From positions 15 through 64,014 of the forward strand of contig JBFXHR010000012.1 of assembly GCA_050176815.1 (NCBI GenBank): a stretch of DNA of 64,000 nucleotides. The letters run 5' to 3'. Each line of letters begins with the position of its first letter. The first letter of the stretch is position 1. The position numbers and the translations under genes were made by a program. The notes below the pieces were generated by a model. That model had not been told where the DNA came from, did no database searches, and was given only the letters and a program-made list of their open reading frames with translations. Source of the stretch: Kiritimatiellia bacterium. Lineage in GTDB: Bacteria; Verrucomicrobiota; Kiritimatiellia; CAIQIC01; Lenti-01. Below, piece by piece: positions 1,634 to 21,145 of this stretch.

Positions 1634-3971
1634 GGAAACAGCGACGCATGTCCCCGGCCCGCCGGCCCTGCCGGGCTACGAGATCCAGAGCCTGCTCGGC
1701 TCCGGCGGCACGTCCACCGTTTGGCTGGCCAAGCAACTCTCCCTCGACCGCGTCGTCGCCATCAAAATCCTGTCGCCGAAACTGCTGACCGATCCCGCCG
1801 CGCGCGAGCAGTTCCAGCAGGAAGCCCGCGCCGCCGCCCGCCTGGCCCATCCCGCCATGGTCGGCATCGTCGATTTCGGCGAACACGACGGCACGCCCTA
1901 CTACGTCATGGAATACGTGGCCGGGACCAATCTCGCCGGCTGGCTCGCCGAGAACCAGCGCATGGCCCACGGCCAGGTGCTCAAGCTGGCCGAGATCGTC
2001 GCCGGCGCCCTCGACGCCGTCTGGCGCGAAGCGTCGCTGATCCACTGCGACGTCAAGCCCGGCAACATTCTTCTCGGCGCCGACGGCGCCGTGAAGATCA
2101 CCGACCTCGGCCTGGCCCGCATCGCCGGGTCCGCCGCGACCCGCGAACCCTCCGCCTGCATCGAAGGCACCCCCACCTACATCGCCCCCGAGCAGATCGA
2201 AGGCCTCCAGCCCGATTGCCGCACCGACATCTATTCGCTCGGCCTGACCCTCTACCACCTCCTCACCGGCAAGCCCCCCTTCGAGGGCCGCTCCCTCGAC
2301 GCCATCCTCGAAGCCCAGCAAACCGATTTCCTTCCCGACCCCTGCGAAATCCTGCCGCACCTCCCCGTCTCCTACGGCTGGCTCCTCGCCAAAATGACCG
2401 CGAAGGATCCGGCGAAACGCCCCGCCTCCTGGGCCGACGTGCTCAGGGACATCCGCCAGATCAAGACCGGCAAATCGCCGCTGCCGCCCTTTCCCGCCGA
2501 CGACGAGAGCACCATCCTGCTCAATCCGCGCCACCGGCCCGGCGCGCGCGCCCACACCATCAATCTTTCCGCCGCCGCGAAAAAGGCCATCGCGCTCTCC
2601 GGCTCCGAGTCCCTCATTGGCAAGCAGAAACGCGGTTCCGCGGCCGCCGCCGCATCCTCCGGCGGCGGCGGATTCCTGCGTTTTCTCTTCTTCCTGCTTT
2701 TCCTCGGCGGCGTCTTCTACGCCATCTGGTTCTTCGGGTTCAAGGACCACCCCGAACGCATCGCGCAGCTCAAGGCCGGGCTCAAGGGAGAACGCATTCC
2801 GCCTCCCTCGCAAAAGCCCAACGTCGCCGTCGGCGGCACGTTCCGCAACGCCGGCGAAAAATCCTCCGCCGCGGTTCCGGCGCCGGAAACCTCCGCATCC
2901 GCCGCCGCCGAACTTTCCGCCTTGGCCACCGAGCCGGCGCCCTTCTCCGCCGGCACCCCGTCCGTGACTCCGGGGGCATGGAACCATCCCGGCTTCATCC
3001 AAGCCGCCAATCAATTCAACTCCGCCCTGGCCGCCTACCAAGCGCACCTCAAGAAGCCCGATCCGCAGGACCCCGCCCTCGTCGGCATCGTCTCCGACGC
3101 CCAATACGCCGCGCTCCTCTTCGAAACCATCCGGCCCGACGCCCCCGCCGACGTCCCCGTCACCCAATACGCCAACCAGTGCTACCAGCTCGTCAACGAC
3201 GCCCGCCGCGCCCGCCTCGACCGCGCCGCCAAGAAAAACCTCTTTGCCCTCGCCCCCAAAATGCGCAATGCCGCGCTCTGCCCCCATCCCACGCCCCCTC
3301 CCGATCCGACCGACGCCTTCGCGCCGCGCTTCATGCAGTTCGGCTACGCCTGGGAAACCCTCCCCGCCCCCGTCGACCGCCCCGAAACCGCGGAATTCGT
3401 CATGCTCCTCGCCACCGTCGCCGAAGCCGCCGCCGATGCTCGCGCACAGGCCGGCCTGTTCATCCACGGCCCTTTCACCTGGCTCATGCCGTTGACCAAC
3501 GCCTGCCGCGCCCTCGGCGTCAAGAAACCCGAACCCCGCATTCCCATCGAAGGCGCCCCTTTCCCCTACGGCGGGTTCTTCATGCATACCTTCAACGCCG
3601 GACGCTACGGCGCCCTCGGCCCCGGCCAGCCCCCCTATCCCACCCTCCGCCTCATCACCGACAGCGAGGACCAGCTCGTGGCCATCCAGCTCGTCGATGA
3701 AAAGCCCGCCCCGCCCCTCCAGAATTCGCCCATGACTTTCTCCACCGCCACCAAAATCCTGGATTTCGTCACCGGCCGCGCCATCTCGGAAAAAGGCGAC
3801 GTGCGCGTCGTCCACCGCACCCTCAAGGGCGAGGGCACCCTGCGCATCGACTCCGAAGCCGCCGACTTCATCGAAGGCCCCGACGGCGCGCCCCTTTTCC
3901 GCTCCGTCCTCCTCCTCCCCCAGACCGTCGCCAATTCCCTCCTCTACCACCTCCTCGGCTCCGCCAACTGA
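1634..3971 (+). CDS. Hanks-type Ser/Thr protein kinase with one TM segment and a long C-terminal domain
   Basis: YEIQSLLGSGGTSTVWLAK...AIKIL, HCDVKPGNILL, DLGLAR, GTPTYIAPEQ kinase subdomains. Hydrophobic FLRFLFFLLFLGGVFYAIWFF segment. Start chosen at METATHV (1634) rather than the ORF-track upstream M. Confidence 0.8.
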
Positions 3972-4329: not shown

Positions 4330-5709
4330 ATGATTCAGGACCGTAAAACAACCACTGCGGCGCAAGAATCCTCCCCGAAACCCGGCCGGAGAAAATCCGC
4401 CGGGCCGAAAGCGCGCTACGCCGACCTCTTCAACCGGGCTCCCGCAGGATATTGCACTCTCGACGCAGACGGGCGGATCCTCGAGGCCAATCCCGCCCTC
4501 TCCTCCCTCCTCGGCGCCCCCCCCGCCGCGCTGCTCCGGGAATCTTTTTCCCAATTCGTTTTTCCGGAAGACCAGGCCATCTTCGACCGGCTTCGCCAGG
4601 AGCTCGCCGGCTCCGGCGACTTCCAGGCGTGCGAACTGCGCCTGGAAAAGAAAAACGGGACGGTTCTCTGGGCGCATCTGGCCGCGATCCTCGTCCCGGA
4701 AGCCGGCGGCGCGCCGACGTGCCGCATCGCCGCAAGCGACATTTCCCCGTTCGTGCAAATGGAGCGTTCCCTCCGGCGCCTCTACGTCGTCCTCGCCCAG
4801 ATCAACCAGGCCCTCGTCCACTTCCAGAAGCGCGACGAACTGCTTCGCGAAATCTGCCGCATCGCCGTCGGATTCGGCGGCTTTCGCATGGCCTGGATCG
4901 GGCTGGTGGACCCGGCGACCCGCCAGTTGAAACCGATCGCCCACGACGGCCACGAAGAGGGCTTCCTGAAATCGATCCACGTCAACGTCAACCCGGACAG
5001 CGCGTTCAGCCAAGGTCCCATCGGCCAGGCCTTCCTCCGGAACCAAGTCGTCGCCAGCAACGAATCCGATCCCTCCTTTCAACGCTCGCCGTGGCGGAAC
5101 GAAATGCTCAAGCGCGGCTACCGCGCCTTGGCCGCCGTGCCCTTCCGCCTGAACAACGAGGCGATCGGCACCTTGAACCTCTACCTCGACGCGCCGCGGG
5201 CCTTCTCCGAAGAGGAACGGGACGTGCTGAAGCGGATCGGCGGCACCCTTTCCTTCGCGCTGGATTGCCTCGAAATCGAAAAATCCCGCCAGCGCGCCGA
5301 AGCGGCCCTGCGGGAAAGCGAAGCGCAGAACCGCGCCTTCATCCACGCCATTCCCGATCTCGTTTTCATGAACAAGCGGGACGGCGAATATCTGGCCGTC
5401 CATGCGCCGGACCCCGGCCTGCTTGCCGCGCCCCCCGATGCCGTTCTCCACCGCAAGATCGGCGAGCTCCTGCCGAAATCCATCGCGGACCGTTGCCTCC
5501 ACGCCATCGCCGCCGCCCTGGATTCGCGCACGCTCCAGAAACTGACCTACGTGCTCCCGCTCGACGGCCGGAAACGGCGCTTCGAGGCCCGCATCGCCCC
5601 CTGCACTCCCGACACGGTCCTCACCATCGTACGCGACATCACCGAACTCCAGCCGATCGGAAAAGCGGCGCGTGGAAAAAAAACGCGCCGCCCGAACGCC
5701 CCCGCATAA
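4330..5709 (+). CDS. PAS-GAF-PAS sensor protein with no recognisable output domain
   Basis: Two PAS-like segments (NRAPAGYCTLDADGRILEANPA...; NRAFIHAIPDLVFMNKRDGEYL...) flank a GAF-like core (FRMAWIGLVDPATRQL...NLYLDAPRAFSEEE). No HisKA/HATPase motifs. Confidence 0.65.
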   Translation: MIQDRKTTTAAQESSPKPGRRKSAGPKARYADLFNRAPAGYCTLDADGRILEANPALSSLLGAPPAALLRESFSQFVFPEDQAIFDRLRQELAGSGDFQACELRLEKKNGTVLWAHLAAILVPEAGGAPTCRIAASDISPFVQMERSLRRLYVVLAQINQALVHFQKRDELLREICRIAVGFGGFRMAWIGLVDPATRQLKPIAHDGHEEGFLKSIHVNVNPDSAFSQGPIGQAFLRNQVVASNESDPSFQRSPWRNEMLKRGYRALAAVPFRLNNEAIGTLNLYLDAPRAFSEEERDVLKRIGGTLSFALDCLEIEKSRQRAEAALRESEAQNRAFIHAIPDLVFMNKRDGEYLAVHAPDPGLLAAPPDAVLHRKIGELLPKSIADRCLHAIAAALDSRTLQKLTYVLPLDGRKRRFEARIAPCTPDTVLTIVRDITELQPIGKAARGKKTRRPNAPA

Positions 5710-5734: not shown

Positions 5735-7354
5735 TCACGGCGCCGGATCTTCCGCGGGCACGGCCCCCGGCGCGACAAGCGGCGGCATGGGCACGACGGG
5801 CTCCAATGCGGCGTTGCGGACGACGATGATTTCGTGCCCAGCGTACTCGGCGATGGAGCGGACCTCCAGGCCCTGCAGGAATTCCCGGCAGCCGCCGCCG
5901 ACGAGAACGCCGGCGTAGCTCGCGCCAGGCGCGACGGGCCGCTGCGAGAACAGCCGCAACTGCTCGCTGTTCCGGCGCGCGTAGAACATCAGCGAATTCA
6001 GCGGGTAGTGCCGGAAATTGACGATCATCGGCCCGGGCACGTCCCCGGCCGACGGCAGGAGCTCCGCGAGACGGCGCATCGGTTCCGAGTCCCGCGCGCG
6101 ATGCATGTTGACGTACGGATTGGCGACCGACAGCCCCCCGCCGGCCAAGGCCAGCGCCAGACCGACGGCGAAAACGCCGCCCCCCGTTCGCCGCAACTTC
6201 TCTCCGCGCGCCAGCCCCAGCGCGGCGGCGAGGATCGCGGCGGCCAGGACCCCCCCCGGGAGCGCCGGCGGCCCGGCGTAGACGCCCGGGAGAAACGTTC
6301 CCGCCGCCAGCAGGACGCACGGCGCCAGCCGCAGCGCCAAAGGAGCCCCGCCCTGGACCAGCCCGACCAAGATCCGCGCGGCGAACAGAGCCATGGGAAC
6401 GACGGCGGGCAGCATGTACCAGGGCATCTGCTGGCGCACCGTGGAGACCATCGCGAGCGGAACGAGCCCGACCAGCGCGATCAGAATCGCCTCGCGCCGG
6501 CCCGCCTTCGTTCCCGGCAAGCCCCACGCCAGGAACGGCGCGGCCGCGAGGAAGGGCGCCAGGGCGCCCCACGAGGCCCAGAGGTAGCGCAGCGACTTGA
6601 GGTAGAGCGCCGTGTCCCGCCACGAGTGCTTGAGGCGATAGCCCACCATGTCCTCGAAATGCGGCTTGAGAAAGATGTCGGTGTGCATGGCAAACTGGCT
6701 CCCGAACCAAACGCCGGCGACGACCGCCGCCCAACACAGCCCGGCATAAAACAGCGGATCGCGGAACGCCTTCCGGCGGACCGCCAGCAAATACAGCAGC
6801 GAGGCGGGGAGAATCGGGACCGCCCCCTCGCCTTTCGTCAACAGGGCCAACCCGCAGCACAGTCCCCATCCCAAGTAGCAGCGGGGGCGTTCCTCCGCGC
6901 GCAGCAGGAACCACGCGGCGCCCAGCGAGAACGCGATCATGGTCGTGTCCATCATGCCGACGCACGACTGCGAAGCCAGCGTCGGGTGGAGGGCCGCGAA
7001 CAGCGCGGCGACCAGGCCCGTCCAGGGATCGAAGACGCGCCGGCCCATGGCGTAGGCCAAGGCCAGCACGCACAGGAACAACGCCATCGAAGGCAGGCGC
7101 AGGGCCCATTCCCCCACGCCGAGGATCCGGTAGCCCGCCGCGACCAGCCAGTAGTACAGCGGCGGTTTGTGGACGTCCGGTTCCCCGTTCCAGTAGGGCG
7201 TCCAGCCGCGCCCCTGTTCCATCAGCCCCAGGGAGCGCAGCGCGGTCAGCGCCTCGTCGCCGGTGGCGATCCCGGGATGGAAGAGTTGGATGCAGCGCAG
7301 GCCCGCGCCCAGCAGCAGCAAGACCAGCAGAAAGAGAGGCAGTTTTTCCCGCAT
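5735..7354 (-). CDS. GT-C glycosyltransferase, ArnT/PMT_2 (GT83/GT39-like) family polytopic membrane protein
   Basis: MREKLPLFLLVLLLLGAGL..., then GDEALTALRSLGLMEQG...VHKPPLYYWLVAAGY, typical of undecaprenyl-phosphate-sugar-dependent GT-C transferases. Many TM helices. Confidence 0.75.
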   Translation of the reverse strand: MREKLPLFLLVLLLLGAGLRCIQLFHPGIATGDEALTALRSLGLMEQGRGWTPYWNGEPDVHKPPLYYWLVAAGYRILGVGEWALRLPSMALFLCVLALAYAMGRRVFDPWTGLVAALFAALHPTLASQSCVGMMDTTMIAFSLGAAWFLLRAEERPRCYLGWGLCCGLALLTKGEGAVPILPASLLYLLAVRRKAFRDPLFYAGLCWAAVVAGVWFGSQFAMHTDIFLKPHFEDMVGYRLKHSWRDTALYLKSLRYLWASWGALAPFLAAAPFLAWGLPGTKAGRREAILIALVGLVPLAMVSTVRQQMPWYMLPAVVPMALFAARILVGLVQGGAPLALRLAPCVLLAAGTFLPGVYAGPPALPGGVLAAAILAAALGLARGEKLRRTGGGVFAVGLALALAGGGLSVANPYVNMHRARDSEPMRRLAELLPSAGDVPGPMIVNFRHYPLNSLMFYARRNSEQLRLFSQRPVAPGASYAGVLVGGGCREFLQGLEVRSIAEYAGHEIIVVRNAALEPVVPMPPLVAPGAVPAEDPAP

Positions 7355-7361
7355 GGCGTTC

Positions 7362-9263
7362 CTAGAGATCCCACGGTTCCCCGCGGCGGACGAAATCGGC
7401 GCGCAGCACCCACAGTTCCGCGCGGCGGCCGACCACCACCGTCTCGACTTTGGACGCGGCCGGCAGCGAAAAGGCCACCCGCTGCGACCGCAGGGCGTAC
7501 GGACCGCAGCCGACGGGCTCGATGTCGGCCTCCGCGAGCGGAGGTTCCCGGCCGGCCAGCCGGACCTGCAGCGTGCCCCACGAATCCATTCCGCCGTCGT
7601 CCGGCGTCCGCGCGGCGAACAGGAAGACCGCCTCGTAGTCGCCGGGTTCCAGCTCGTTGGGCCACGCCGCGACCATCGGCTGGATCTTCCCGCGCGAAGA
7701 GCCCGCCCAGTGCCGCGTCGTGATCGGCAGTTCGGCGTTGGACAGGCCGGTCTTGGCGTATTCCGCCCCGGACAGCACGCGCCGCAGGGCATCGAGCACG
7801 AGGGAATTCGACGCGGGATCCGCGCCGCGTTTCAAGACGACGTTGATCCCGTCGAAAAACACCACGCCGAAGGTGCCGTCTTCCAGCCAGCCCCGGTATC
7901 CCATCCCCCGGTCGTCCACGTACTTCAATTCGCTGAACATGAGATCCACCCGGTGGCGCTGGGGATCGTAGTGGCGCCAGTCGACGACGTCCTTCCGGTT
8001 GGCGCAGAAGCCGGCCAAGCGGGCGGGACAGAGCAGCACGCCCTCGCGGGGTATGTGCCGGGCGGCGCGCAGGATGCGGAAGCCGGCCGCGTGCGGCCGG
8101 ACGTAGCAGGCCATCCGCTGGGCGGCGCCGGGCAAGAACCCCCGGGCCCAGCAGGACGCCGCCGTGATCAGCAAAAGGCCGATCGCCGCGGCCAGCGCCC
8201 CATGTCCAGAACCCGCGGCGCCGCGGTCTCCGCGGGCCTCGGCGGCGCGCGAGAGCGCTTCAAGCATCGCAACGGCCAGACAGGCCATGATCGGCGCCGC
8301 GTAGTGCAGGGCGAGCGAATATTGGTACTGCGTTCCGCCGCCCATCGCCTGGACCAGGGCCAGCGACGGAAAGACGAGCAGCGGGATCCAGCCCTTTTTC
8401 CAAACGAACGGCACCGCCGGCAGCGCGACCCAGCACAGCGCCCCCGCCCGGATGCGCAGGGTTTCCGGATTCAGCAGATGCGCGAGGGGATTGTCGCCCA
8501 GATCCGCGTGGCGGCGGGCCATGAGGCTCAGGCCGGTCAGCAGCGGATACAGCGTCGTCGTCGCCAAAACCACGTAGGCGATCGACAAGGCCGCATAGAC
8601 GTAGCCGGCCCGCCAGCGGTCCCGGATGGCGAAGTACAGCAGCAGGGGCAGCACCGCCGCCGCGGCGTCCTCGCGCATGCCGAGGACCAGCAGCCACGGC
8701 AGCCAGACCCACCGCCGGCGGAACTTCAGGCAGAGGTACAGCCACGGCACCAGCAGCAGGTAGAGGCTCACGCCGTGGAACTCGCTCAACAGCGTTTGCT
8801 GCGTGAAATGGTACCCGACGAAAAACGCCGCGACGGCGGCCGCCGCCGCCGGCGCAACGCGAAGCCGGACCGCCGTCCGGACCAGCACGCCCGCGCCCGC
8901 GACGAGGATCAGCCACTGCGCCGTCCAGAGCATGAACGGATGGTCCCATATGAAAAACAGGGGGCCCAGCAAGGCCAGCGTGAACGACAAGTGCGTGGCC
9001 AGATAGGAGCGGTCCAGCAGGCAGCGGAACAGGTCGCCGTGCCCGCTGTTCCAAATCATGTTCGTGTAGACCCCGTAGTCGAACATCGTGAACTTGCGCC
9101 ACGTGAACGCGGAGAATCCGGCATAGGCCAAACCGGCCAGGATCAGCACGGCCCACACGCCCCCCCCCCAGGTCGCGGCCGTCTGGACGCAATGGAAACG
9201 CGATCGGGGTCCGGGCGACGCGGCCGCAGGCCCGCCCCGGCCGGTCTGAATCAGCGCTTTCAT
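7362..9263 (-). CDS. Polytopic membrane protein (DUF2079-like / putative GT-C superfamily) with a C-terminal extracytoplasmic domain
   Basis: About 8-10 predicted TM helices in the N-terminal 400 aa, followed by a soluble domain of about 230 aa. 7-nt gap to the upstream gene. Confidence 0.55.
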   Translation of the reverse strand: MKALIQTGRGGPAAASPGPRSRFHCVQTAATWGGGVWAVLILAGLAYAGFSAFTWRKFTMFDYGVYTNMIWNSGHGDLFRCLLDRSYLATHLSFTLALLGPLFFIWDHPFMLWTAQWLILVAGAGVLVRTAVRLRVAPAAAAAVAAFFVGYHFTQQTLLSEFHGVSLYLLLVPWLYLCLKFRRRWVWLPWLLVLGMREDAAAAVLPLLLYFAIRDRWRAGYVYAALSIAYVVLATTTLYPLLTGLSLMARRHADLGDNPLAHLLNPETLRIRAGALCWVALPAVPFVWKKGWIPLLVFPSLALVQAMGGGTQYQYSLALHYAAPIMACLAVAMLEALSRAAEARGDRGAAGSGHGALAAAIGLLLITAASCWARGFLPGAAQRMACYVRPHAAGFRILRAARHIPREGVLLCPARLAGFCANRKDVVDWRHYDPQRHRVDLMFSELKYVDDRGMGYRGWLEDGTFGVVFFDGINVVLKRGADPASNSLVLDALRRVLSGAEYAKTGLSNAELPITTRHWAGSSRGKIQPMVAAWPNELEPGDYEAVFLFAARTPDDGGMDSWGTLQVRLAGREPPLAEADIEPVGCGPYALRSQRVAFSLPAASKVETVVVGRRAELWVLRADFVRRGEPWDL

Positions 9264-9347
9264 TGGGCCGAACAGTGCCGAAAGCGGACCGGAACCGCAA
9301 GAAAAACGTGCCCCGCCCGCCCCAGATATCCCGGTCCCGCGGCGGGA

Positions 9348-12347
9348 TCAGGGCACCACGGTCCACCGGCCGGGCCAGAGGGCGGCTCGGCGCTGGATGG
9401 CCGGCGCATCGCTGCGCCGGATTGGGACGCGGAATCCGCTTTGGGACTGGTAGAGGCCAACGGCGAGATCCAGCGGTCCGGGAGGCGTTCCGGCGGGAAT
9501 CGAGAGGCGGCGCGTCTCCGCGAGGCCTTCGCGGGCGACGGGCCGGAGAGAAGCGTCGCCCCACAGGAGAAACAAGCCCCGGTAGTCGTCCTGCGCCACG
9601 AGCGCGCCGCGGGAATCGCGCACGTGGATGAACGTGATTTCCTGCCCGGGCTCGAAGCCGGCGGCGGCGGACCAATGCAGGCGCACCTCGATTTCGCCTC
9701 CGGCCTTCGCGTCCACGGGCCCGGTCTCGACGCCTTCGAGCCAAATGCCGTTGGCGAATTCCGTCGCGCAGGGCTTTTCCGGAAGATCGGCGGACTCGCG
9801 GCGGACCTGGACGGCCCGCGCGCCGCCGAGCCGCGCGACGGTCTCTTCCGGCAGCGCGGCCAGCGCGGCGGGACGCCAGCGAACGACCTCCTCCAGCAGC
9901 GCTGGTTGCGTTTTGCCGGTCTCTTTTCCCGCGCAAAGGCGGCGAATCGCCTCGGCCGCGCGCGCGGAGGAGTTGCCCAGCAGCAGGGTTTCGCCCGTCC
10001 ATCGGACAGCGGGCGGCAGCCCCAGGCCATCGGCAGTCCATCCGCCGGCGTTCACGGAGAAGACGCACCACTTGTTCACCGTGTCGAACTGGAATTCCGC
10101 GCCGTGGGCCCCGAGGGCGTGGCGCATGGCGTCCTCGTAGCGGGGTTCCACGATGAACACGCCAGGCCGCTCCGCCGCCACGCTCCCGTCGCGCGCGACG
10201 TTTCCCGGAGGGAAAACCCGGGCGGCCAGGCCCGCGAGCCGCTCTTCGGGAACCCATCGGCCGGCGAGCAACTGGTTGGAAATCCAGCGCGGCGCATAGA
10301 CGGCGGTCTCCGGCGCGCGTTTGAGCAGCCATTTGCCCAGCGCCTCCACCGCCGCGCTCGTATGGCGCCGAAGCAGGCCCTCGGAGGAATCCAGCGCGAC
10401 GACTTCCGCGAGACGCCAGCCCAGGCTGCGTCCACTCGCCTGCGCGTCGAGCAAGGTGATGCGCAGCGCCTGCGCGCCGGCCGCTTCCAGGCGGAATTCC
10501 GGGCGCGCCAGGCCGGACGAAAAATAGAGGCGCGGGCCGGAGCCTTCCAGCGGATTGACCGGTTCGTCCGCGAGCAGCGTTCGCCATTCGCCGCCGATCT
10601 GGACTTCCACGCGGATGCGGAACGAAAAGGCGAACGGATCCTCCACGATCGAGTGGGCGAACGCGAGCTGGATGGAATGGACGTCCTGCGGCTGGACGAA
10701 GGTCCATTCCAACGGGACGGCCGGCGCGGCGCCGGGCGACCAGAACGTGTCGAGGTTGCGATCCATGAGCGCGGATCTCCAGTCCCGGCCCGCGCCGTCG
10801 CGAAGGCTTTCGGTGTTTTCGGCCGGAATCTCCCGCAGCGAGACCGGAGGCCGGCGCACGTTGTACAGCAGGCTCCGGCGGCCGACCGCGATGGATTCCC
10901 ATTGCGCGCCCTGCTGGACCAGGAAGGAACCCACGCCGTTGAAGTCGGACGAATACGCGGGGGCATCCGACAGCTCCGCGCGGCGCAGGATGGGTTCGTA
11001 GAATTTTTGCCGGCCGTTGGACACGGCGAAGCGCTCGTCCAGCGCGAAGTTCAGCGGGAACAGCTGGATGGGCGCCAGCAGGGCGTCCGCCCCGGCGCGG
11101 GCGAGCGCCTCGCCGATGTCGCGATAGCCCGCCAGCGTCGCCGCGGATTTATGCCCCGACGCCGCCAGGGACGAGAGCGCCAACGCCCCTTGCCCCGCCG
11201 CGAGGGCGACGAGCAGGCCCCACGCCGCCGCCCGAAACGCCCGGGATCCGGACGCCGCGCACGCCACCCCCGCCAGCACCGCCAGGGCCGGCACCAGCGG
11301 AACCCAGTAGCGCGCCGTGTGGGTCCGGGTGAAGCCGGACGTCGCGAAGACCAGCGCGAACAGCGCGCAAAAAAGGATTGCGCCGCTCCGCGCATAGTTT
11401 TCCGGAAGCGAAGCCCGGCGCCGGGAAGCCATCGCCCTAAAAACCCCGGCCCCGGCCAGCCCCAGCACGACCGCGGCCAAGACCAGCGGCAACCCCGATC
11501 CCGCCGCGTTCCGCCCCTGCTGCAGCAACAAAAAGCGGTTCCACGAGTTGGACAGCGCTTCGCGCAGCGGCGCGTGCCCGCCGATCTGCGACATCGCCAG
11601 CGACGCCCACCCGTGCCGCGCGTTCCACGCCAGCCACGGCGCGAAGCCCAGGGCGAAACCCGCCAGGCCGGACGCGATCCCCGCCGGATGCCGCCAGAAC
11701 TTCCCGCGCATGCCGTGCAGCAGCAGCAGCGCGGCCGCGCCCAGCGCCGGCGCCACGATCATGTTCGACCACGCCCCGATACCCGCCAGCAGGCCCAGCG
11801 CGAAATAGCGCCCCCCCCCGACCGCATGCCCCCCGCGCAGACGGGCCGCCATCCGCGCCGCCGCGAAAATCGCCAGCGCATCCACGAACAGCGCGACCAT
11901 GTAGCCGCCCCGCGGGGCCGCCTGGAACTGGAAATAGACCAGCGGGCCAAACAGCCCCGCCAGCACGGCCGCCAGCCCACCCCGCGGGCCGGCGGCGTCG
12001 CGCGCCCAGCGCCACAACAAGAACAGCGCCGCCGACGCGAACAGCGCCGGACCCAGATTCACCGCGAATCCGTTCGATCCCAGCAGGCCCACCATCAGCG
12101 CGCTGGCCATCGGCTCGAGGCTGCCCATATAGGCCTGGCCGTAGAAAAAGACCGGGAACTCCTTCAGCGCGGCCATGTGGCGGGCCATCAGCGCGACCAC
12201 CGTCGAATCCGGATCCCCGATGCCCCGCGCCGCCCACGCCCCCGCGACCCGGACGGCGACGCCCAGCAGCAGCAGCGCCGCCGCCAGCCGATCGGCCCAA
12301 TCCCCGCGCTTCGTCGTTTCCGTCGCGTCGCTCATCGGGTCGCTCAA
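9348..12347 (-). CDS. PMT_2/GT39-like GT-C membrane glycosyltransferase fused to a C-terminal discoidin (F5/8 type C)-like domain
   Basis: N-terminal HMAALKEFPVFFYGQAYMGSLEP... and multiple TM helices (PMT_2-like). C-terminal segment ALMDRNLDTFWSPGAAPAVPLEWTFVQPQDVHSIQLAFA resembles the discoidin NxDxxTxW motif. 999 aa. Confidence 0.65.
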   Translation of the reverse strand: MSDPMSDATETTKRGDWADRLAAALLLLGVAVRVAGAWAARGIGDPDSTVVALMARHMAALKEFPVFFYGQAYMGSLEPMASALMVGLLGSNGFAVNLGPALFASAALFLLWRWARDAAGPRGGLAAVLAGLFGPLVYFQFQAAPRGGYMVALFVDALAIFAAARMAARLRGGHAVGGGRYFALGLLAGIGAWSNMIVAPALGAAALLLLHGMRGKFWRHPAGIASGLAGFALGFAPWLAWNARHGWASLAMSQIGGHAPLREALSNSWNRFLLLQQGRNAAGSGLPLVLAAVVLGLAGAGVFRAMASRRRASLPENYARSGAILFCALFALVFATSGFTRTHTARYWVPLVPALAVLAGVACAASGSRAFRAAAWGLLVALAAGQGALALSSLAASGHKSAATLAGYRDIGEALARAGADALLAPIQLFPLNFALDERFAVSNGRQKFYEPILRRAELSDAPAYSSDFNGVGSFLVQQGAQWESIAVGRRSLLYNVRRPPVSLREIPAENTESLRDGAGRDWRSALMDRNLDTFWSPGAAPAVPLEWTFVQPQDVHSIQLAFAHSIVEDPFAFSFRIRVEVQIGGEWRTLLADEPVNPLEGSGPRLYFSSGLARPEFRLEAAGAQALRITLLDAQASGRSLGWRLAEVVALDSSEGLLRRHTSAAVEALGKWLLKRAPETAVYAPRWISNQLLAGRWVPEERLAGLAARVFPPGNVARDGSVAAERPGVFIVEPRYEDAMRHALGAHGAEFQFDTVNKWCVFSVNAGGWTADGLGLPPAVRWTGETLLLGNSSARAAEAIRRLCAGKETGKTQPALLEEVVRWRPAALAALPEETVARLGGARAVQVRRESADLPEKPCATEFANGIWLEGVETGPVDAKAGGEIEVRLHWSAAAGFEPGQEITFIHVRDSRGALVAQDDYRGLFLLWGDASLRPVAREGLAETRRLSIPAGTPPGPLDLAVGLYQSQSGFRVPIRRSDAPAIQRRAALWPGRWTVVP

Positions 12348-14455
12348 TGGTGGAACCGTCCGTCGAAATTGGGTTTCACCGGCGCCGCGGGCGGACGGTA
12401 TCCGATCTCCACGCGGCCGTGGCCGCCCGGCTGGACCGCGATGAACCGCAGGTTTTCATCCACGGCGAAGGGCCCGATGGAAGCGCCCGGCGTGCGGCAG
12501 AACAGCCCGTCGCGCCAGTTGTAGCGGATCACGACCCGGGGCGCCGACGGATCGGCGGGAAAGACCTCGATGCGATTCTCCCGGGCCTCGACCCGCCCGG
12601 TCCCTTCGAGGAAGCGCGTCGCCGGTTCGTCGCCAACCACCCGGTAGACCTCGAACTCGCGCCCCGGCATCCGCATCGATTTCACCCGTTCGAAGGCGCC
12701 GGGATGGGCCGCAAGAAAATCCTTCGCATGGGGCGACGACGCCACCCAGTGCGTAATGCCGTAGGCCCGGGAAAAGAACAGGTAGCCCTCGAGGGTGCGG
12801 CGGTAGAAGGCGGGCGGATAATTGTATTCAATCGTGCCGCGCGGAAAGCCGTAGTAGTCGTCGGCCATCATTTCGCGGCCGGCCAGGACAGGCAAATAGG
12901 CGATGTTGCCGCCGCCGTAGGAGTGGATGTTTCGCCCGGCGAAACCCAGCCGCCCTTCCACGGGCACTTCCGCGCGGATCCAGTCCGCGAACTCGCGGAT
13001 TTCGGCCGGCATCGTGCGCAGGGGCGCCGGGCCGTGGTTCGCATAGTGCATGTGCACGACGCGGAACCCGAACAGCACCGTCGCCAACGCGATGCCTTGC
13101 GCGGCGGCCCGCGCCCAGCGGCGGCCGCGCCCGGCGGCGCCCGGTTCCCCGCCGCCGAACAGGCGATCGCCCAGCGCCGCGGCCGGCAAGACCGCCGCCA
13201 CGGCCATGGGAATCGCCATGCGGTCGAGCTGGGAAAACGGCTTCCATTCGCGGCTCCAGCCGGCGATCGCGGCCAACACCCCGAACAGCGGCAGCATCCA
13301 GCGGCGCAAGCCGCGCGGGGCGGCCGCCAATCCCAGCAGGCCGAAAAACAGCAGCGCCGGATGCCATTCCTGGACGTCGATTCCCAGCCGCTTTGCGCCG
13401 TTCCACGCCAGGACGCCCCACCCCGGCCGTTCCAGCGCGGTGCCGACGTATTCCACCACGTTGCGGCAGGGGAACCACGTCGTCCAGAACCACGGCGCCA
13501 GCAAGGCCAGCGCCAGCGCCCCCGCCGCGAACACCCACCGGTTCGAGCGCCCCGACCCCGCGCGGACATTCCACAGCCAGCCCAGCGCAAGCCCCGCGGC
13601 GACGAATACGCCCGGCGTCCACAAGCACATCAGCCACGCCGAGATCCCCAGCGCCAGCGCCGTGCCGAACCCCCCGCGCCGCAACACCGCCAGCCGATAG
13701 CCCAGCGCCGCGACGGGCAACGCCGCCATCGCCGAAGCCATCGCCCCCACCGTGCCGAAATGCCACGTCCAGATGAAGGCCTCGCGGCTGGCGCCGCACA
13801 GCAGCAGGCCCGCGAACAGCGCGCCGGGCCACCCCACCCCCGCCGACCGGACCGCCGCCGCGCCGAGCCACGGAAAGGCGAACACAAACCAGAAAATGAG
13901 CGCCGCGCCATAGAACGCGTGCGGTTCCCACAGCTTCAGCAAGGGCCAAATCAGCACGCCGAACCCGTGCGCCCCGCTCGTCACGCCCACGAAATGCTCG
14001 ATGCCCGCGTTCCACCACGGGTTGTAGCCGCCGAGCGCGAACGGGAACAGATCGCCGAATTCCTTCAGGCGAAACATGAACGACGGGTGGTCGAAGCCCC
14101 ACGGCACCGTGCCGCCCGCGACGCCCCACGCCGCATGCGCAAAAACACACTGGCATCCCAGCCACAGCGCCGCCAGCACCGCCGGCCATCCCCGGCGCAG
14201 GCGCGCGCCGCCGACGAAAAACGCCGCCGCCAGCGCAACGGAAACCGCGATGAATTTGAGGCTCGTGGACGTCCACCACGGCGCCAGGAAAAACCAGGAG
14301 GGTCCCCGCTGCCCGTTCCACGCCAGCGTCTGCCCCATCCCCAGCACGTAGGCGCCCATCGCCGCCGCCAGCAGGGGCGGAATCCACCACCGGCCCGGAT
14401 TCGCTCCGCGTTCGCCCGCGATCGGTTGTCCGCCGTTCGACATGTCCCGCATCAT
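12344..14455 (-). CDS. Polytopic membrane protein (putative GT-C-like) with a C-terminal soluble domain
   Basis: 703-aa ORF. N-terminal 450 aa very hydrophobic (multiple TM). C-terminal about 230 aa soluble. The stop overlaps the downstream gene start (ATGA at 12344-12347), indicating an operon with 9348..12347. Confidence 0.55.
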   Translation of the reverse strand: MMRDMSNGGQPIAGERGANPGRWWIPPLLAAAMGAYVLGMGQTLAWNGQRGPSWFFLAPWWTSTSLKFIAVSVALAAAFFVGGARLRRGWPAVLAALWLGCQCVFAHAAWGVAGGTVPWGFDHPSFMFRLKEFGDLFPFALGGYNPWWNAGIEHFVGVTSGAHGFGVLIWPLLKLWEPHAFYGAALIFWFVFAFPWLGAAAVRSAGVGWPGALFAGLLLCGASREAFIWTWHFGTVGAMASAMAALPVAALGYRLAVLRRGGFGTALALGISAWLMCLWTPGVFVAAGLALGWLWNVRAGSGRSNRWVFAAGALALALLAPWFWTTWFPCRNVVEYVGTALERPGWGVLAWNGAKRLGIDVQEWHPALLFFGLLGLAAAPRGLRRWMLPLFGVLAAIAGWSREWKPFSQLDRMAIPMAVAAVLPAAALGDRLFGGGEPGAAGRGRRWARAAAQGIALATVLFGFRVVHMHYANHGPAPLRTMPAEIREFADWIRAEVPVEGRLGFAGRNIHSYGGGNIAYLPVLAGREMMADDYYGFPRGTIEYNYPPAFYRRTLEGYLFFSRAYGITHWVASSPHAKDFLAAHPGAFERVKSMRMPGREFEVYRVVGDEPATRFLEGTGRVEARENRIEVFPADPSAPRVVIRYNWRDGLFCRTPGASIGPFAVDENLRFIAVQPGGHGRVEIGYRPPAAPVKPNFDGRFHH

Positions 14456-14472: not shown

Positions 14473-16551
14473 CTACAATTCAAACGTGTCCACGGGGCAT
14501 TCCGGCAGCGACCGCAGGAAGACGCGCCCGTACCATTTGGCGAGGAGGCGCGAATCGAGCACCACCACGATGCCTTCGTCGGTCTGCGAGCGCAGCAGGC
14601 GCCCGAAGCCCTGCCGGAATTTCAGCACCGCCTCCGGCAACGAATAGTCCCGGAACGGGTCGCCGCCTTTTTCCTTGATGCGCTTCAGCCGCGCCGCCAC
14701 CACGGGATGGTCCGGCACGGCGAACGGCAGGCGCGTGAGAATCACGTTGCGGAGCGCGTCGCCGCGCACGTCCACGCCCATCCAGAAACTGTCCAGTCCG
14801 AACAGCACGAAGCCCTTGTCTTCCCGAAACGTCTCCAGCATCGTGCGCCGCCCCAACCCCTCGCCCTGCGCCAGCAGCGTCAATCCGGCTTTTTCCAGAG
14901 GCTCGCGCAGGGCCGCGGCCGTCCGCTTCAGCAGTTCGCCGCTGGTAAAAAGCGCGAAGGCGCGCCCGCGCGTCTTCAGCGACCAGCGCAGGACGCCTTT
15001 GGCGACGGCCTCGGCGAACGCCTCCTTGTCCTTCGGATCGGGCGCGTTGGACGCCACGTGCAGGCGCATCTGCCGCGCATGGTCGAACGGCGACCCCAGG
15101 CAAAGCAATCCGCACCCGTCCCCCGCGCCGAGCCGGTCCCGGACGTATTCCAAATGGCCGCCCACCGCCAGCGTGGCGCTGGTCAGGACCACGCAGGGCA
15201 TGGCCTCGAAGAGCGCCGCATGCAGGAGCGGCGCCACCTCGATCGGCGCCGAGTGCAACACCGGCTGGCGGCGCTTGCCCTCGCGTTCGATCCAGTACAC
15301 GTGGTCCGGCAGCGACTGCCCCAAAAACGCCGCCAGCTGGTCGCCCAGCTCCGCCCCCTGTCCCCGCAAGCCGCGCAGCTCGGTCCGCGATTCTTCGTCC
15401 TGGTCTTCCAGTTCCTCGATCAGCGTCCCGAGGCGTCCAGACAGTTCCCGCAGCAGGTCGGGCACGTCGGTTTCCACCGCCAGCGGCCCCGGCACCGTTT
15501 TCTGGTCGTCGCGCGGGCCCAGCCCCGCCGCGCGCGGCACCGCATGGAACAGTTCCGCCGCCGCGTCCCACAGGCGCGTCGCCGTCTGCGCCGCCGGTCC
15601 GGCGCGCAGATAGCCCAGCAACCCCTTGCCCGTATCCGGAGAGAACAGCCGCCGCAGCCAGTGTTCGAACGAGTGCGGCGAAAGCCGGATGCCCAGATGG
15701 TCGCTCGCGGTGTCCTCGACCGTATGCGCCTCGTCCAGCACCACGGCGGCCACGTCGGGCAAAAAGCCCGCGCCCGCGCGCCGCAGGGCCAGATCGGAAA
15801 AGAACAGGTGGTGGTTGGCCACCAGCAGGTCGGCATCGCGCATCTTGGCGCGCGCCCGCTGCAGGAAACACCGCTGCCGCTCCGGGCATTTCGTCCCCAT
15901 GCAGTTGCCGTGCTCGGCGCAGACCGCGCTCCAGGCCTCGGCCGACGGCGGCCGGCGCATTTCCTGCACGCTGCCGTCTTCCGTGCGGTCCGCCCAGGCG
16001 CGGATGCGTTCCAGTTCCTCGGCCAGGCCTTCGCCGAACAGGTCCCGCTGGTGGTGGCGGGCGCGCGCCAGCCGGCGCAGGCACAGGTAGTTCATGCGCC
16101 CCTTCACCAGCGTGGCCCGGAACGGCGTCCCCAGCCGTTCCTGCAGCAGCGGAAGATCCTTGCCGACGAGTTGTTCCTGCAGCGAAATCGTGTGCGTGGA
16201 CACCATCGCGCGCGTGCCGGAACGCTTGGCGTGCAGAATCAGCGGCACCAGATAGGCCAGGCTTTTCCCCACCCCCGTTCCCGCCTCCACGACCAGATGC
16301 CGGTGGGCATCGAGCGCGTCGGCCACCGCGCGCGCCATGTCGACCTGCTGGGGCCGCGCCTCGTATTCGAAATCCCCGATGGGGGCGTCCGCCAAGACGC
16401 CGCCGGGAGCGAACGCCGCGCAGGCGGCCTCGCGCAACGGAGGACCGACGGGCGCGGAAACGCCCTGGATCGGCGCAATCACGGAGGGGGCTTTCGGCGC
16501 CGCGGGACGGGAGCGCGGCGCTCTATTCTTCCGGCGCGGCAGCCGGCGCAT
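14473..16551 (-). CDS. dinG: DinG/Rad3-family ATP-dependent DNA helicase
   Basis: FEYEARPQQVDMARAV (Q motif), GTGVGKSLAYLVP (Walker A), VVLDEAHTVED (DEAH), 4-Cys cluster CAEHGNCMGTKCPERQRC (Fe-S). Start placed at MRRLPRR (16551). The ORF-track N-terminal basic extension is doubtful. Confidence 0.8.
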   Translation of the reverse strand: MRRLPRRKNRAPRSRPAAPKAPSVIAPIQGVSAPVGPPLREAACAAFAPGGVLADAPIGDFEYEARPQQVDMARAVADALDAHRHLVVEAGTGVGKSLAYLVPLILHAKRSGTRAMVSTHTISLQEQLVGKDLPLLQERLGTPFRATLVKGRMNYLCLRRLARARHHQRDLFGEGLAEELERIRAWADRTEDGSVQEMRRPPSAEAWSAVCAEHGNCMGTKCPERQRCFLQRARAKMRDADLLVANHHLFFSDLALRRAGAGFLPDVAAVVLDEAHTVEDTASDHLGIRLSPHSFEHWLRRLFSPDTGKGLLGYLRAGPAAQTATRLWDAAAELFHAVPRAAGLGPRDDQKTVPGPLAVETDVPDLLRELSGRLGTLIEELEDQDEESRTELRGLRGQGAELGDQLAAFLGQSLPDHVYWIEREGKRRQPVLHSAPIEVAPLLHAALFEAMPCVVLTSATLAVGGHLEYVRDRLGAGDGCGLLCLGSPFDHARQMRLHVASNAPDPKDKEAFAEAVAKGVLRWSLKTRGRAFALFTSGELLKRTAAALREPLEKAGLTLLAQGEGLGRRTMLETFREDKGFVLFGLDSFWMGVDVRGDALRNVILTRLPFAVPDHPVVAARLKRIKEKGGDPFRDYSLPEAVLKFRQGFGRLLRSQTDEGIVVVLDSRLLAKWYGRVFLRSLPECPVDTFEL

Positions 16552-17611
16552 CGGCCGCGGCTTCCGCGGGCGCCGTCTCCGGCGCGGCGGCTTTCGACGC
16601 GACCGATGGGGCGATTTCCGCCAGCGGACCGGCAAACTTGATGGTCGCCTTGTCCCGCAGTTCCCCGATGTAGTCGTTCACGATTTTCTGCTGGGCCTTG
16701 GCTTTCATCGAGGCTTCCAGCCGTCCCTTGACTTCGTCGAACGGAACGACTTTCTTTTCCTGCTCTCCCGTCGCCCGGATCACGTGGAAGCCCACGGGCG
16801 ACTCCACCACTTCGCCGATTTCGCCGATGTTCTGGCCGTAGACGGCGTCTTCGAACGCTTTGTCCTCGCGCCCCTTGGGAATCACGCCCAGCGCGCCCCC
16901 GCGGCTGCGGCTCATGCACTCCGACACCTCGCCGGCGAGTTTTCCGAAATCGGCGCCTTCCAGCAGCGCCTTGCGGATGCCTTCCGCCTTCGCGCGCAGA
17001 TCGGCCTTGGCCGCTTCGGCCGCGTCTTTCGGCACCCGGACGAGGATATGCGAAGCCAGGCGCCCTTCCGGCTGGGTGAACTCTTCCAGATGCGCATCGT
17101 AGTAGGCCTTGGCCGTTTCGTCCGTCACCTCGGCGAACGCCGATTCCAAGCGATCCCGCAGGACTTTGTTCTTGAACAGGTCCAGGCGGAGATTCATCTC
17201 CACCTCTTCCATCGGGACGTTCGCATTCGCCAGCAGCATCGTCAGCGAGCCGCCCGGCAGTCCCTTTTCGAGATCCTTCTTGCCCTGCTCGATTTCCTCC
17301 TGCGAGACCAGCACGCCCGAACGTTCCATTTCCGCCTTCACCAACTGGCGGATCACCAGGTTGTCCACCGCCTGCTGCAGCACCTTCGCCTGCGCCGCCG
17401 ACATCTGTTCCGCCGGCAGATCCTTCGGCACGCTCGCAAACAGCCGGCCGGCCTCCTGCTGGATCTGGCCGGTGGTCAAGCCCACCTGATCCACCCAGAC
17501 CGACACTTCCGAGGCCCCGCCCCGGGGCTGGACCACCTGCGCGTCCTTCTTCCCGCAGCCCGCCGCCAACACCAAAGCCGAAATCCCGATCCACCGAATG
17601 AACTGCGTCAT
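16523..17611 (-). CDS. Parvulin-type peptidyl-prolyl isomerase lipoprotein (SurA/PrsA-like)
   Basis: Signal peptide plus lipobox LAAGC. SurA-N-like chaperone region followed by a parvulin core (RLASHILVRV...GGALGVIPKGR...VVESPVGFHVIR). Confidence 0.75.
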   Translation of the reverse strand: MTQFIRWIGISALVLAAGCGKKDAQVVQPRGGASEVSVWVDQVGLTTGQIQQEAGRLFASVPKDLPAEQMSAAQAKVLQQAVDNLVIRQLVKAEMERSGVLVSQEEIEQGKKDLEKGLPGGSLTMLLANANVPMEEVEMNLRLDLFKNKVLRDRLESAFAEVTDETAKAYYDAHLEEFTQPEGRLASHILVRVPKDAAEAAKADLRAKAEGIRKALLEGADFGKLAGEVSECMSRSRGGALGVIPKGREDKAFEDAVYGQNIGEIGEVVESPVGFHVIRATGEQEKKVVPFDEVKGRLEASMKAKAQQKIVNDYIGELRDKATIKFAGPLAEIAPSVASKAAAPETAPAEAAADAPAAAPEE

Positions 17612-17792
17612 GTTCTTTTTCCTTTCGCGCTATCTAGGCAAATCTTGAAAACAGCGGCATTTTCGGCCAATCCCCTCGAAAAGCAAGCCTCAAACTGGAG
17701 GGAAGGAAAAACCGGACGCCCGAAAAATGGGGTTTCCTCCGCCGGCCAAACCTGTATGCTGCCCCCCCCAGCAACCATGGACCCCAAACGAC

Positions 17793-18503
17793 ATGGCCAC
17801 CACCCTATTCATCCCCACCCTGAACGAGCTCGAAGCCATGCGCGTCGTCCTGCCCCAGATCGACCGGTCGTGGGTGGACCAGATCCTGGTCGTCGACGGC
17901 TCGACCGACGGCACCGCCGACTACGCCCGCGAGCACGGCTGCGAGGTCGTGGTCCAAAAGGAAAAAGGCCTGCGCCATGCCTTCATCGAAGGCTTTCCCC
18001 ACGTGCGCGGCGACTGGGTCATTACGTTCAGCCCCGACGGAAATTCGCCCGTCCGCGCCATCCCTCTCCTCATCGAAGAAATGAAAAAGGGCTACGACAT
18101 GGTGATCGCGTCCCGCTACCTGCCCCCGGCCAGGAGCGACGACGACGATCCCATGACCGCCTTCGGCAACTGGCTGTTCACGCACGCGATCAACGTCCTG
18201 CATGGACACGCCTGGAACCGCCCCTACACCGACGCGATGGTGATGTACCGCATCTACCGCACGAAGCTCTTCTACGAGCTGGACCTGGACCAGGAAGAAA
18301 GCTACGCCCCGGAAAAATGGTTCGGCACCATCCTCGGCATCGAGCCGCTGCTGTCCATCCGCGCCGCCAAGAAAAGGGTCAAGATCGGGGAAATCCCGGA
18401 AGACGAGCCCGCGCGCATCGGCGGCAAGCGCAAGCTCCAGCCCTTCCGCTGGGGCGGCGCCTACATGAGCCAGGTCTGGCGCGAATTGTATTTCTGGAAA
18501 TAG
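17793..18503 (+). CDS. GT2-family glycosyltransferase (polyprenyl-phosphate sugar synthase-like)
   Basis: MATTLFIPTLNELEAM...ILVVDGSTDGTADYA...DMVIASRY. GT2 DxD-type nucleotide-sugar binding region. Start chosen at MATTLF rather than the ORF-track upstream M. Confidence 0.7.
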   Translation: MATTLFIPTLNELEAMRVVLPQIDRSWVDQILVVDGSTDGTADYAREHGCEVVVQKEKGLRHAFIEGFPHVRGDWVITFSPDGNSPVRAIPLLIEEMKKGYDMVIASRYLPPARSDDDDPMTAFGNWLFTHAINVLHGHAWNRPYTDAMVMYRIYRTKLFYELDLDQEESYAPEKWFGTILGIEPLLSIRAAKKRVKIGEIPEDEPARIGGKRKLQPFRWGGAYMSQVWRELYFWK

Positions 18504-21133: not shown

Positions 21134-21145
21134 GATTTCTCCGCC

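Follow-up and report, generated by a model that had tools for sequence, protein, structure and literature searches.

Two pairs of polytopic membrane proteins in a Kiritimatiellia genome: candidate GT-C glycosyltransferases of the cell envelope

Four consecutive genes on the minus strand of a Kiritimatiellia metagenome-assembled genome (MAG) encode polytopic membrane proteins, here called G1 to G4 in the order of their transcription. They raise the question whether such an array is one glycosyltransferase operon or a composite of smaller units. The DNA analysed, referred to as the window, is a stretch of 64 kb with ~67% GC. According to the original prediction, the genes constitute a single operon for four proteins resembling glycosyltransferases of class C (GT-C), which would act stepwise on a protein or a glycan. 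Our analysis instead points to two conserved gene pairs, G1 plus G2 and G3 plus G4, and we consider it fairly probable that they encode extracytoplasmic, lipid-phosphate-sugar-dependent GT-C glycosyltransferases acting on an acceptor in the cell envelope. Three of the four proteins (G1, G2, and G4) are GT-C-like on the tested evidence; the catalytic activity of G1 and G3, the stepwise action, and the choice between a protein and a glycan as acceptor are parts of the picture that we infer.

The gene array

The genes and the most conspicuous domain that they encode are as follows.

12344-14455, minus strand: G1, a polytopic membrane protein of 703 aa, GT-C in its predicted fold, from a family without annotation
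9348-12347, minus strand: G2, a 995/999-aa protein with a distant PMT_2/GT39-like GT-C membrane domain and a ~580-aa periplasmic region
10386-10847, minus strand: CBM32/discoidin-fold beta-sandwich inside G2 (residues ~497-650), as modelled
7362-9263, minus strand: G3, a polytopic membrane protein of the DUF2079 family (633 aa; C-terminal domain 260 aa)
5735-7354, minus strand: G4, by sequence a 539-aa ArnT/PMT_2-type GT-C glycosyltransferase with a ~128-aa periplasmic tail

Open reading frames (ORFs) lie exactly at these positions in tight succession, as the original prediction had it. Because long spurious ORFs are common in GC-rich sequence, GC content by codon position was used as a gene filter. 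GC at the third position (GC3) amounts to 0.86-0.89 in G1 to G4, compared with ~0.5-0.7 at positions 1 and 2, which is the bias that the other real genes of the window show, too, and all four are real coding genes. With the TTG at 12347 as start codon, G2 overlaps G1 by 4 nt; with the ATG at 12335, 8 nt separate the two. NCBI uses the latter start, and its 995-aa protein (P0095) is 100% identical. The gaps between G2 and G3 and between G3 and G4 measure 84 nt and 7 nt, respectively. In each protein, a C-terminal stretch of 128-603 non-hydrophobic aa comes after many hydrophobic segments, and in the AlphaFold models of G1 and G2, ~11-13 membrane helices precede folded domains rich in beta structure. 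The polytopic architecture with C-terminal extracytoplasmic domains, as originally proposed, is thus borne out.

Evidence for membership in the GT-C class

The clearest case is G4, which matches Pfam PMT_2 with 93.1 bits (gathering threshold 26.1) and also STT3 (44 bits) and PMT (35 bits). A family profile made from seven orthologues aligns with ArnT (5ezm) over ~390 residues at an E-value of 3.2e-7, and reaches STT3B by sequence, too. In the alignment with ArnT, the segments GDEAL, HKPP, MxDTT, and LTKG of G4, whose residues are invariant, correspond to PDEGR, EKPP, LDMT, and LTKG, respectively. The ArnT-equivalent residues kept in G4 are D33/E34, K63, D136, and K174, and a His occupies the position of ArnT E84. 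The motif KPPLYYW, on which the PMT/ArnT assignment had been based, is found at residues 63-69. By sequence, G4 clearly belongs to the GT-C enzymes of the ArnT/PMT_2 type. The 42.4 bits that it reaches on the ArnT equivalog model NF009784 represent its best NCBIfam match but lie below the cut-off of 567, and it does not qualify as an orthologue of ArnT.

G2, the second protein said to carry ArnT/PMT signatures, also exceeds the PMT_2 threshold, if marginally (27.1 bits; cut-off 26.1). About half of its homologues have a precomputed PF13231 match, and the identical entry at NCBI is listed as 'glycosyltransferase family 39 protein'. Alignment of the G2 and G4 family profiles by hhalign gave an E-value of 3.1e-11 and placed D43 of G2 upon D33 of G4. 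The AlphaFold model of G2 (pLDDT 88.8, pTM 0.83) retrieved EmbA (1.6e-8), EmbC (8.3e-8), and ArnT (1.7e-7) in Foldseek searches, and furthermore EmbB, STT3, AglB, PglB, and ALG12/9. In this model, residues ~13-414 form the GT-C membrane domain, and the periplasmic ~580 aa form four folded domains: the CBM32-fold module and three more. Taken by Pfam, profile-profile comparison, and modelled fold, G2 is a GT-C-like, distant relative of PMT_2. The two sequence motifs noticed originally are present at residues 65-71 (YGQAYMG) and 527-532 (NLDTFW).

The latter motif had suggested a discoidin-like lectin domain, and this suggestion holds by fold and family profile, whereas the Pfam evidence falls short. 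The F5/8 type C model (PF00754) scores only 15.3 bits on G2 (E 0.023), below the gathering threshold of 28.2. With the G2 family profile, however, the CBM32 protein 4a42 (carbohydrate-binding module family 32) was found among PDB sequences at an E-value of 1.4e-4, and discoidin domains of chitosanases and glucanases at ~1e-3. The modelled beta-sandwich superimposes on 4a42 with a target-normalised template modelling score (TM) of 0.72 and an rmsd of 3.2 A (Foldseek E 4.4e-4), and further fold matches include 5zu6, 3nng, other CBM32 domains, and APC10. The module is conserved across the family and contains an invariant D525. A lectin-like CBM32/discoidin module in G2 is thus real at the level of the predicted fold. 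By analogy it may bind carbohydrate, but the same fold is found in the protein-binding APC10. Among GT-C enzymes, the carbohydrate-binding modules (CBMs) of EmbC, AftD, and the GT136 enzyme ORF12 bind the glycan acceptor (PMC11127046).

G1 has no match in Pfam or NCBIfam. Its 41 aligned relatives likewise lack any Pfam match even at E<=10, so that none of them shows an STT3 signal, and the family profile retrieved nothing meaningful from PDB sequences. The AlphaFold2 model (pLDDT 89, pTM 0.89) was more informative. Its best Foldseek matches in PDB are AglB (6.7e-7), STT3A (1.2e-6), and ArnT (1.5e-6), followed by AftD, DPY19, PglB, and AftA. The top 20 PDB matches comprise GT-C enzymes only (E<=4.4e-3, TM 0.35-0.44), and the similarity takes in the membrane domain as well as the periplasmic domain of active enzymes; matches outside GT-C (BetP and others) begin at an E-value of 1.4e-2 and a TM of ~0.1. 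That G1 is a transporter was considered and rejected, as BetP, BetT, and pyrophosphatase match with a TM of ~0.1 and a probability of <=0.2. By hhalign, the G1 family shows a weak but real similarity to the PMT_2 core of G2 (E 6.5e-6, 85% probability), and the comparison with G4 was not significant. G1 and G2 are distant paralogues, and G1 is GT-C-like according to its modelled fold plus the weak profile link to G2.

Conserved motifs of G1 include GFDHPSF (nt 14078-14098), an invariant loop motif that contains D122, and NPWWNAG (nt 14003-14023). The loop with D122 follows the third predicted helix, which implies two additional N-terminal helices compared with canonical GT-C enzymes. A nearly invariant DDYYG (residues 532-536, nt 12848-12862) marks the start of the C-terminal periplasmic domain. 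The STT3-family signature WWDYG is absent from G1, and DDYYG is the corresponding conserved motif; we take its resemblance to this motif of oligosaccharyltransferases (OSTs) as a lead and not as a test.

G3 matches DUF2079 (PF09852) with 102.8 bits (gathering threshold 28.2) over profile positions 8-420 of 459. All 105 homologues are DUF2079 proteins, as are 39 of the 39 that were aligned, and no secondary Pfam matches appeared among the latter at lenient E-values. Pfam probably places DUF2079 in its GT-C clan. G3 is a DUF2079 protein, and its GT-C fold is putative. The claim that all four proteins are GT-C-like is supported for G1, G2, and G4; for G3, no significant similarity to G1, G2, G4, or solved structures was detected. 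The sole functional hint found for DUF2079 is a weak match (best E 6e-4) of three of the 39 homologues to NCBIfam NF046093, 'AZOBR_p60025 family cell surface glycopolymer formation protein'.

All four families have, shortly after a membrane helix, an invariant Asp in their first extracytoplasmic loop: D122 in G1 (41 aligned sequences), D43 in G2 (39), D62 in G3 (39; in an MFDYG loop after the first membrane helix), and D33 in G4 (7). Besides the Asp, E74 of G2 and E34 of G4 are conserved acidic residues of this loop, and D33 of G4 aligns with the loop-1 Asp of ArnT as well as with D43 of G2. Missing acidic residues in loop 1 would have spoken against the GT-C assignment in the original prediction; the opposite was observed in every family.

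Two gene pairs at a recurrent slot

Comparison with relatives, whose loci (L numbers) were labelled with local hidden Markov models, involves two genes upstream of G1 that were both recognised by Pfam.

14473-16635, minus strand: DinG-like helicase, 17 nt from G1
16523-17611, minus strand: SurA-like peptidyl-prolyl isomerase (PPIase; rotamase), upstream of the helicase

The order helicase-G1-G2-G3-G4 recurs in an independent metagenome contig (L005) with 75-88% protein identity, and the arrangement is therefore not due to chance. Within the array, two couplings are evident. In 26-27 related loci, the gene next after G1 is of the G2 type, and wherever the order is visible, G3 immediately precedes G4 (the window, L005, L007, and the five metagenome contigs L051, L053, L054, L055, and L056). 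The two modules occur together in the window and L005, G1-G2 occurs alone in L001 and many more loci, and G3-G4 alone in L007. The rotamase-helicase genes precede either G1-G2 or G3-G4 in L001, L007, L008, L011, L013-L019, and L038. As the modules are found together or apart behind the same rotamase-helicase genes, the presumed operon of four is better described as two conserved pairs juxtaposed at a recurrent insertion slot. In place of a single four-gene unit there are thus two independently mobile pairs plus a co-directional rotamase-helicase. The helicase and the PPIase are conserved synteny partners that mark the slot of the GT-C pairs, which does not imply a functional link; a DinG-like DNA helicase is an odd constant upstream neighbour for envelope glycosyltransferase pairs.

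Variants of the arrangement occur as well. In L015 (5444-15105), the whole G1-G2 pair is tandemly duplicated (helicase-G1-G2-G1-G2), and the first G2 copy is a short form of ~790 aa. In loci of the Lentisphaerales type, G2 is replaced by a 10-helix protein or by GX, a Pfam-less 13-helix protein of ~730-790 aa that weakly resembles the GT-C core of G2 at the profile level (E 1.2e-3).

GX, immediate neighbour of G1: L023 7665-9947, L027 3366-5747, L030 1545-3833, L031 7614-9893, L036 7597-9783, and L043 10077-12251

The other neighbours of G1 in Lentisphaerales loci are housekeeping genes, which offered no functional clue, and no conserved candidate acceptor protein was found beside the pairs in the neighbourhoods L001-L007. 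A trio of genes for VTC-domain, DUF4956, and CotH-kinase proteins adjoins G1-G2 or G3-G4 modules in L004 (16067-20646), L006 (3625-7986), and L007 (13545-14950), and does not occur in this part of the window.

The distribution of G1 deserves separate mention. Its homologues (94 in 90% clusters) and its loci (43 among GTDB species representatives) all stem from uncultured MAGs of the Planctomycetes-Verrucomicrobia-Chlamydiae (PVC) group, labelled Kiritimatiellia, Lentisphaerae, or "Verrucomicrobia". Against 1.84 billion cluster representatives, the G1 profile gave 987 matches at E<=1e-3 and 480 at <=1e-30; ten distant matches were checked, had no Pfam domain, and were named only "hypothetical protein". 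A bold and rather doubtful proposal is that G1 represents a new PVC-restricted GT-C family (~1000 clusters at 50% identity), which would function solely as one half of an obligate heteromer, together with a variable GT-C-like partner, of G2 type in Kiritimatiellia and GX in Lentisphaerales, and would build or decorate a PVC-specific envelope glycan or glycoprotein. In its boldest version, G1 may be a divergent OST-like enzyme with DDYYG in place of WWDYG.

Extent of the transcription unit

5685-5699, minus strand: terminator-like hairpin with T-run just downstream of G4, common to the convergent PAS-GAF gene

This hairpin is the sole terminator-like site outside coding sequence in the region and likely represents the end of the transcription unit. 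Between 5400 and 18000, 28 terminator-like matches were counted compared with 11 in shuffled sequence (2.5x). Nearly all of them lie inside the membrane-protein genes and are probably a by-product of GC-rich codons beside Phe/Leu-rich stretches, not real terminators. A scan of the region for sigma-70 promoters gave no site, and no tRNA or Rfam elements were found in or near it. Since the helicase gene ends 17 nt upstream of G1 and is itself preceded by the PPIase gene, the unit probably comprises six genes instead of four: rotamase and helicase are co-directional with G1 to G4 and probably co-transcribed with them. If read from its first start codon (TTG), the helicase carries an Arg/Pro-rich N-terminal extension of ~50-90 aa; its orthologues have 669 aa, and the true start is therefore probably located ~50 codons downstream. 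Two convergent genes lie downstream of G4. One (4330-5709, plus strand) encodes a PAS-GAF-PAS protein with no output domain, and the other (1455-3971, plus strand) a Ser/Thr protein kinase, whose C-terminal region of ~500 aa has no Pfam match.

Donor-synthesis candidates and the wider window

Divergent from the rotamase gene is a cluster that could make lipid-linked donors.

17727-18503, plus strand: GT2a, a GT2 protein resembling polyprenyl-phosphate glycosyltransferases
18768-19925, plus strand: short-chain dehydrogenase/reductase (SDR) resembling CDP-tyvelose 2-epimerase (E 1.5e-24)
19922-20713, plus strand: GT2b, a DPMS/ArnC-like GT2 protein, overlapping the SDR stop by 4 nt

GT2a and GT2b are 3.3 kb and 5.5 kb distant from G1, respectively. 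The closest solved relatives of GT2a are the dolichyl-phosphate mannose synthase DPMS (5mlz, 2.6e-11) and ArnC (4e-7); those of GT2b (GC3 0.75) are DPMS (7.1e-21), ArnC (2e-10), and the GtrB-type sll0501 (2.7e-9). The SDR is closest to the epimerase named above. A GT2 homologue is situated near G1-G2 in L001, L008, L013, L016, and L018, and GT2 genes are syntenic in at least six loci. In L004, an ArnC-like GT2 gene (1e-61) lies 3 nt upstream of G1, a place taken by a DegT aminotransferase gene in L003.

Beyond this cluster, the window contains three genes for large membrane proteins with an N-terminal polytopic domain of ~430 aa and C-terminal tetratricopeptide repeats (TPR), at 20849-23212 (plus strand), 24909-27023 (minus strand), and 27052-28878 (minus strand), which have a conserved F/L-x-DDD-x-Y-V motif after the first helix. 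Their architecture recalls GT-C O-mannosyltransferases of the TMTC type. Similarity to PMT_2 was confined to a weak PMT match (E 0.057), and hhalign was not significant; if these proteins are true GT-C enzymes, the window holds seven GT-C-like genes. One of them adjoins a gene for a PEP-CTERM-anchored secreted protein (23375-24184, plus strand; Pfam 31.6 bits), possibly a glycosylation substrate or a marker of an exosortase system. Farther away are genes for a GT4 glycosyltransferase (35418-36563), a fusion of Wzy_C (O-antigen ligase/polymerase-like) with TPR (44439-46412), and a Wzz/GNVR/BY-kinase chain-length regulator (47350-49470). The wider region looks like an exopolysaccharide neighbourhood rich in genes for envelope glycans.

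Proposed function and alternative explanations

If the two pairs are glycosyltransferases of the envelope, the SDR would tailor a nucleotide sugar in the cytoplasm, and one or both of the DPM1/ArnC-like GT2 enzymes encoded 3-6 kb upstream would load the sugar onto undecaprenyl phosphate. A putative flippase would bring the lipid-linked sugar to the periplasmic face, where it would be passed on to an acceptor in the envelope by the GT-C enzymes, whose invariant Asp in loop 1 would serve as catalytic base. The ~580 periplasmic residues of G2, including the CBM32-fold module, would hold the acceptor, most likely a glycan as in EmbA/B/C, AftD, and GT136 ORF12. Because of this module and the Emb-like overall match of G2, a glycan (an envelope polysaccharide or a side chain of lipopolysaccharide, LPS, or exopolysaccharide, EPS) is favoured over a protein: we regard a glycan, LPS included, as somewhat the likelier acceptor and a protein as a distinctly less probable one, and leave the remainder to other molecules. 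The partners of a pair might form a heteromeric complex in the style of Pmt1-Pmt2 or EmbA-EmbB or might catalyse consecutive steps. The tight or translational coupling within the pairs, the distant paralogy of G1 and G2, and the precedents of Pmt1-Pmt2 and EmbA-EmbB suggest a heteromer, and by analogy the pairs may be GT-C complexes. Donor identity, flipping, acceptor, and complex formation are elements of this scheme that we infer.

Several points weigh against it. G1 is placed by a predicted structure with moderate TM values (0.41-0.44), and it belongs to no sequence family. As for G3, hhalign comparisons with the G1, G2, and G4 families were not significant, its profile had no match among PDB sequences, and no paper in the library searched mentions DUF2079 or AZOBR_p60025. 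The CBM32 fold also occurs in protein-binding modules of the APC10 type, which keeps a protein acceptor in play. The GT2 genes are divergently transcribed, and GT2a has no membrane helices. Finally, no GtrA, MATE, or SMR/ArnEF flippase was found among the window genes between 1.4 and 49 kb or in the Pfam tables of L001-L007.

The genes could instead serve protein glycosylation of the PMT or OST kind, in which secreted, periplasmic, or PEP-CTERM surface proteins would be modified upon emergence and G1 would be a divergent OST-like enzyme. PMT_2 is a family of bacterial protein O-mannosyltransferases, and a weak match to NF058602 (PrMnsylTfPmt) points in the same direction. AglB and STT3, the top fold matches of G1, are catalytic subunits of OSTs; however, AglB, STT3, and ArnT fall within one order of magnitude, so that the fold does not single out OSTs, and the STT3 signal in Pfam is missing from all 41 aligned members of the G1 family even at E<=10. 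Protein substrates would agree with the SurA-like periplasmic chaperone encoded ahead of the genes in many genomes, and with the PEP-CTERM protein and the three TPR-bearing polytopic proteins within 15 kb, but no candidate acceptor protein is conserved beside the pairs. The match of the G2 module to the protein-binding APC10 has to be set against the closest overall matches of G2, the polysaccharide-building Emb enzymes. On balance, we consider protein glycosylation rather unlikely.

Other explanations divide the array. G1, G3, or both might be non-catalytic membrane partners of G2 and G4, serving as a scaffold, in a flippase-like role, or in presenting the acceptor. Neither protein belongs to a family with demonstrated activity, each is always encoded beside a recognisable or probable GT-C partner, and, as no flippase was found, one of the partners could serve as such. 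Loop 1 of G1 and G3, however, contains the invariant Asp and several invariant polar or aromatic residues, as in catalytic GT-C enzymes, and the fold matches of G1 span both domains of active enzymes, which makes a purely auxiliary role improbable. Alternatively, G4, with or without G3, might modify lipid A or the LPS core in the manner of ArnT by adding a cationic or neutral sugar, and G1-G2 would be unrelated and merely share the insertion site. By sequence, the G4 profile indeed finds just one solved structure with good coverage, namely ArnT (E 3.2e-7), whose residues are kept in G4; the ArnT model is the best NCBIfam match of G4, ArnC-like GT2 enzymes are encoded nearby, and G3-G4 and G1-G2 occur independently in relatives. 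Yet the 42 bits of G4 are far from the ArnT cut-off of 567 bits, a His replaces E84 of ArnT, no homologues of ArnA, ArnB, or ArnD were seen in the window, and nothing in the Arn pathway corresponds to the obligate DUF2079 partner. A lipid A modifier at this locus thus appears quite unlikely, and two pairs of glycosyltransferases acting on an envelope acceptor are the reading that we prefer.

Implications

GT-C enzymes build and decorate cell envelopes, for example in the synthesis of arabinogalactan, the modification of lipid A, and N- and O-glycosylation, and CAZy families are still being founded on single characterised members, such as GT136 in 2024. G2, G3, and G4 belong to known, poorly characterised families that public annotation lists as a GT39 protein (G2) and DUF2079 (relatives of G3). 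The added value lies in G1 as representative of a large family that is restricted to the PVC group, lacks annotation, is predicted to adopt the GT-C fold, and has an obligate polytopic partner: annotation by sequence misses this family entirely, and structure prediction places it firmly in GT-C. It would add a new family to a known enzyme class but introduces neither a novel type of system nor a new principle, and as such holds little surprise for the specialist. Its strict pairing speaks for a frequent use of heteromeric GT-C machines in the PVC group. Kiritimatiellia and Lentisphaerae degrade polysaccharides in guts, digesters, and sediments, where they are abundant, and the chemistry of their envelopes is little characterised. 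The genes G1 to G4 offer handles on the envelope glycobiology of this group, with a modest practical yield in the form of better annotation and the model of two pairs.

Comparison with known systems

Among characterised enzymes, ArnT (GT83) and the PMT_2/GT39 family are closest to G4, which shares the DE of loop 1, the KPP motif, the second Asp, and LTKG over ~390 residues, and more distantly related to G2. Numerous membrane helices and a C-terminal domain in the periplasm are common to these enzymes, G2, and G4. ArnT uses an undecaprenyl-phosphate sugar as donor. The differences are that G4 remains far under the threshold for orthologues and is not accompanied by Arn genes, that G2 has an extra ~580 aa in the periplasm, and that both G2 and G4 are always encoded with a second polytopic partner. 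With the OSTs AglB, PglB, and STT3 (GT66), the top fold matches of G1, this protein has in common an Asp in the first external loop and a C-terminal periplasmic domain. It differs from them in the lack of an STT3 signal, in DDYYG instead of WWDYG, and in two extra N-terminal helices; ArnT and AftD fit nearly as well.

In fold, the Emb proteins match the whole chain of G2 best, and the mycobacterial arabinosyltransferases EmbA, EmbB, EmbC, and AftD (GT53 and related) combine, as does the G2 model, a GT-C membrane domain with a periplasmic carbohydrate-binding beta-sandwich. No sequence relationship was detected, the module of G2 is of the CBM32 type, the TM between G2 and Emb is low (~0.27) because the domains are arranged differently, and the host studied here is a diderm PVC bacterium without arabinogalactan. 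The CBM domains of Emb and AftD hold the polysaccharide acceptor (PMC11127046), and EmbA-EmbB is a heterodimer of paralogues (title of PDB entry 7bvc). Three-component systems, such as the Gtr type and that of GT136 ORF12 in Citrobacter youngae, modify a finished glycan outside the cytoplasm by means of a synthase for polyprenyl-phosphate sugars, a flippase, and a GT-C enzyme; an auxiliary epimerase diversifies the sugar, and ORF12 binds its glycan with a C-terminal CBM (PMC11127046). Similar to these, genes for GT2 synthase-like proteins and an SDR are located near G1, and an ArnC-like GT2 gene precedes G1 in L004. In contrast to them, no flippase gene was found (window 1.4-49 kb, L001-L007), the GT2 genes are divergent, and the GT-C genes come in pairs instead of singly. 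This last feature is reminiscent of Pmt1-Pmt2 (GT39). G1 and G2 lack the MIR domains of these proteins, but the obligate complex of two paralogous GT-C enzymes formed by Pmt1 and Pmt2 has a putative parallel in G1 and G2, distant paralogues encoded by overlapping genes.

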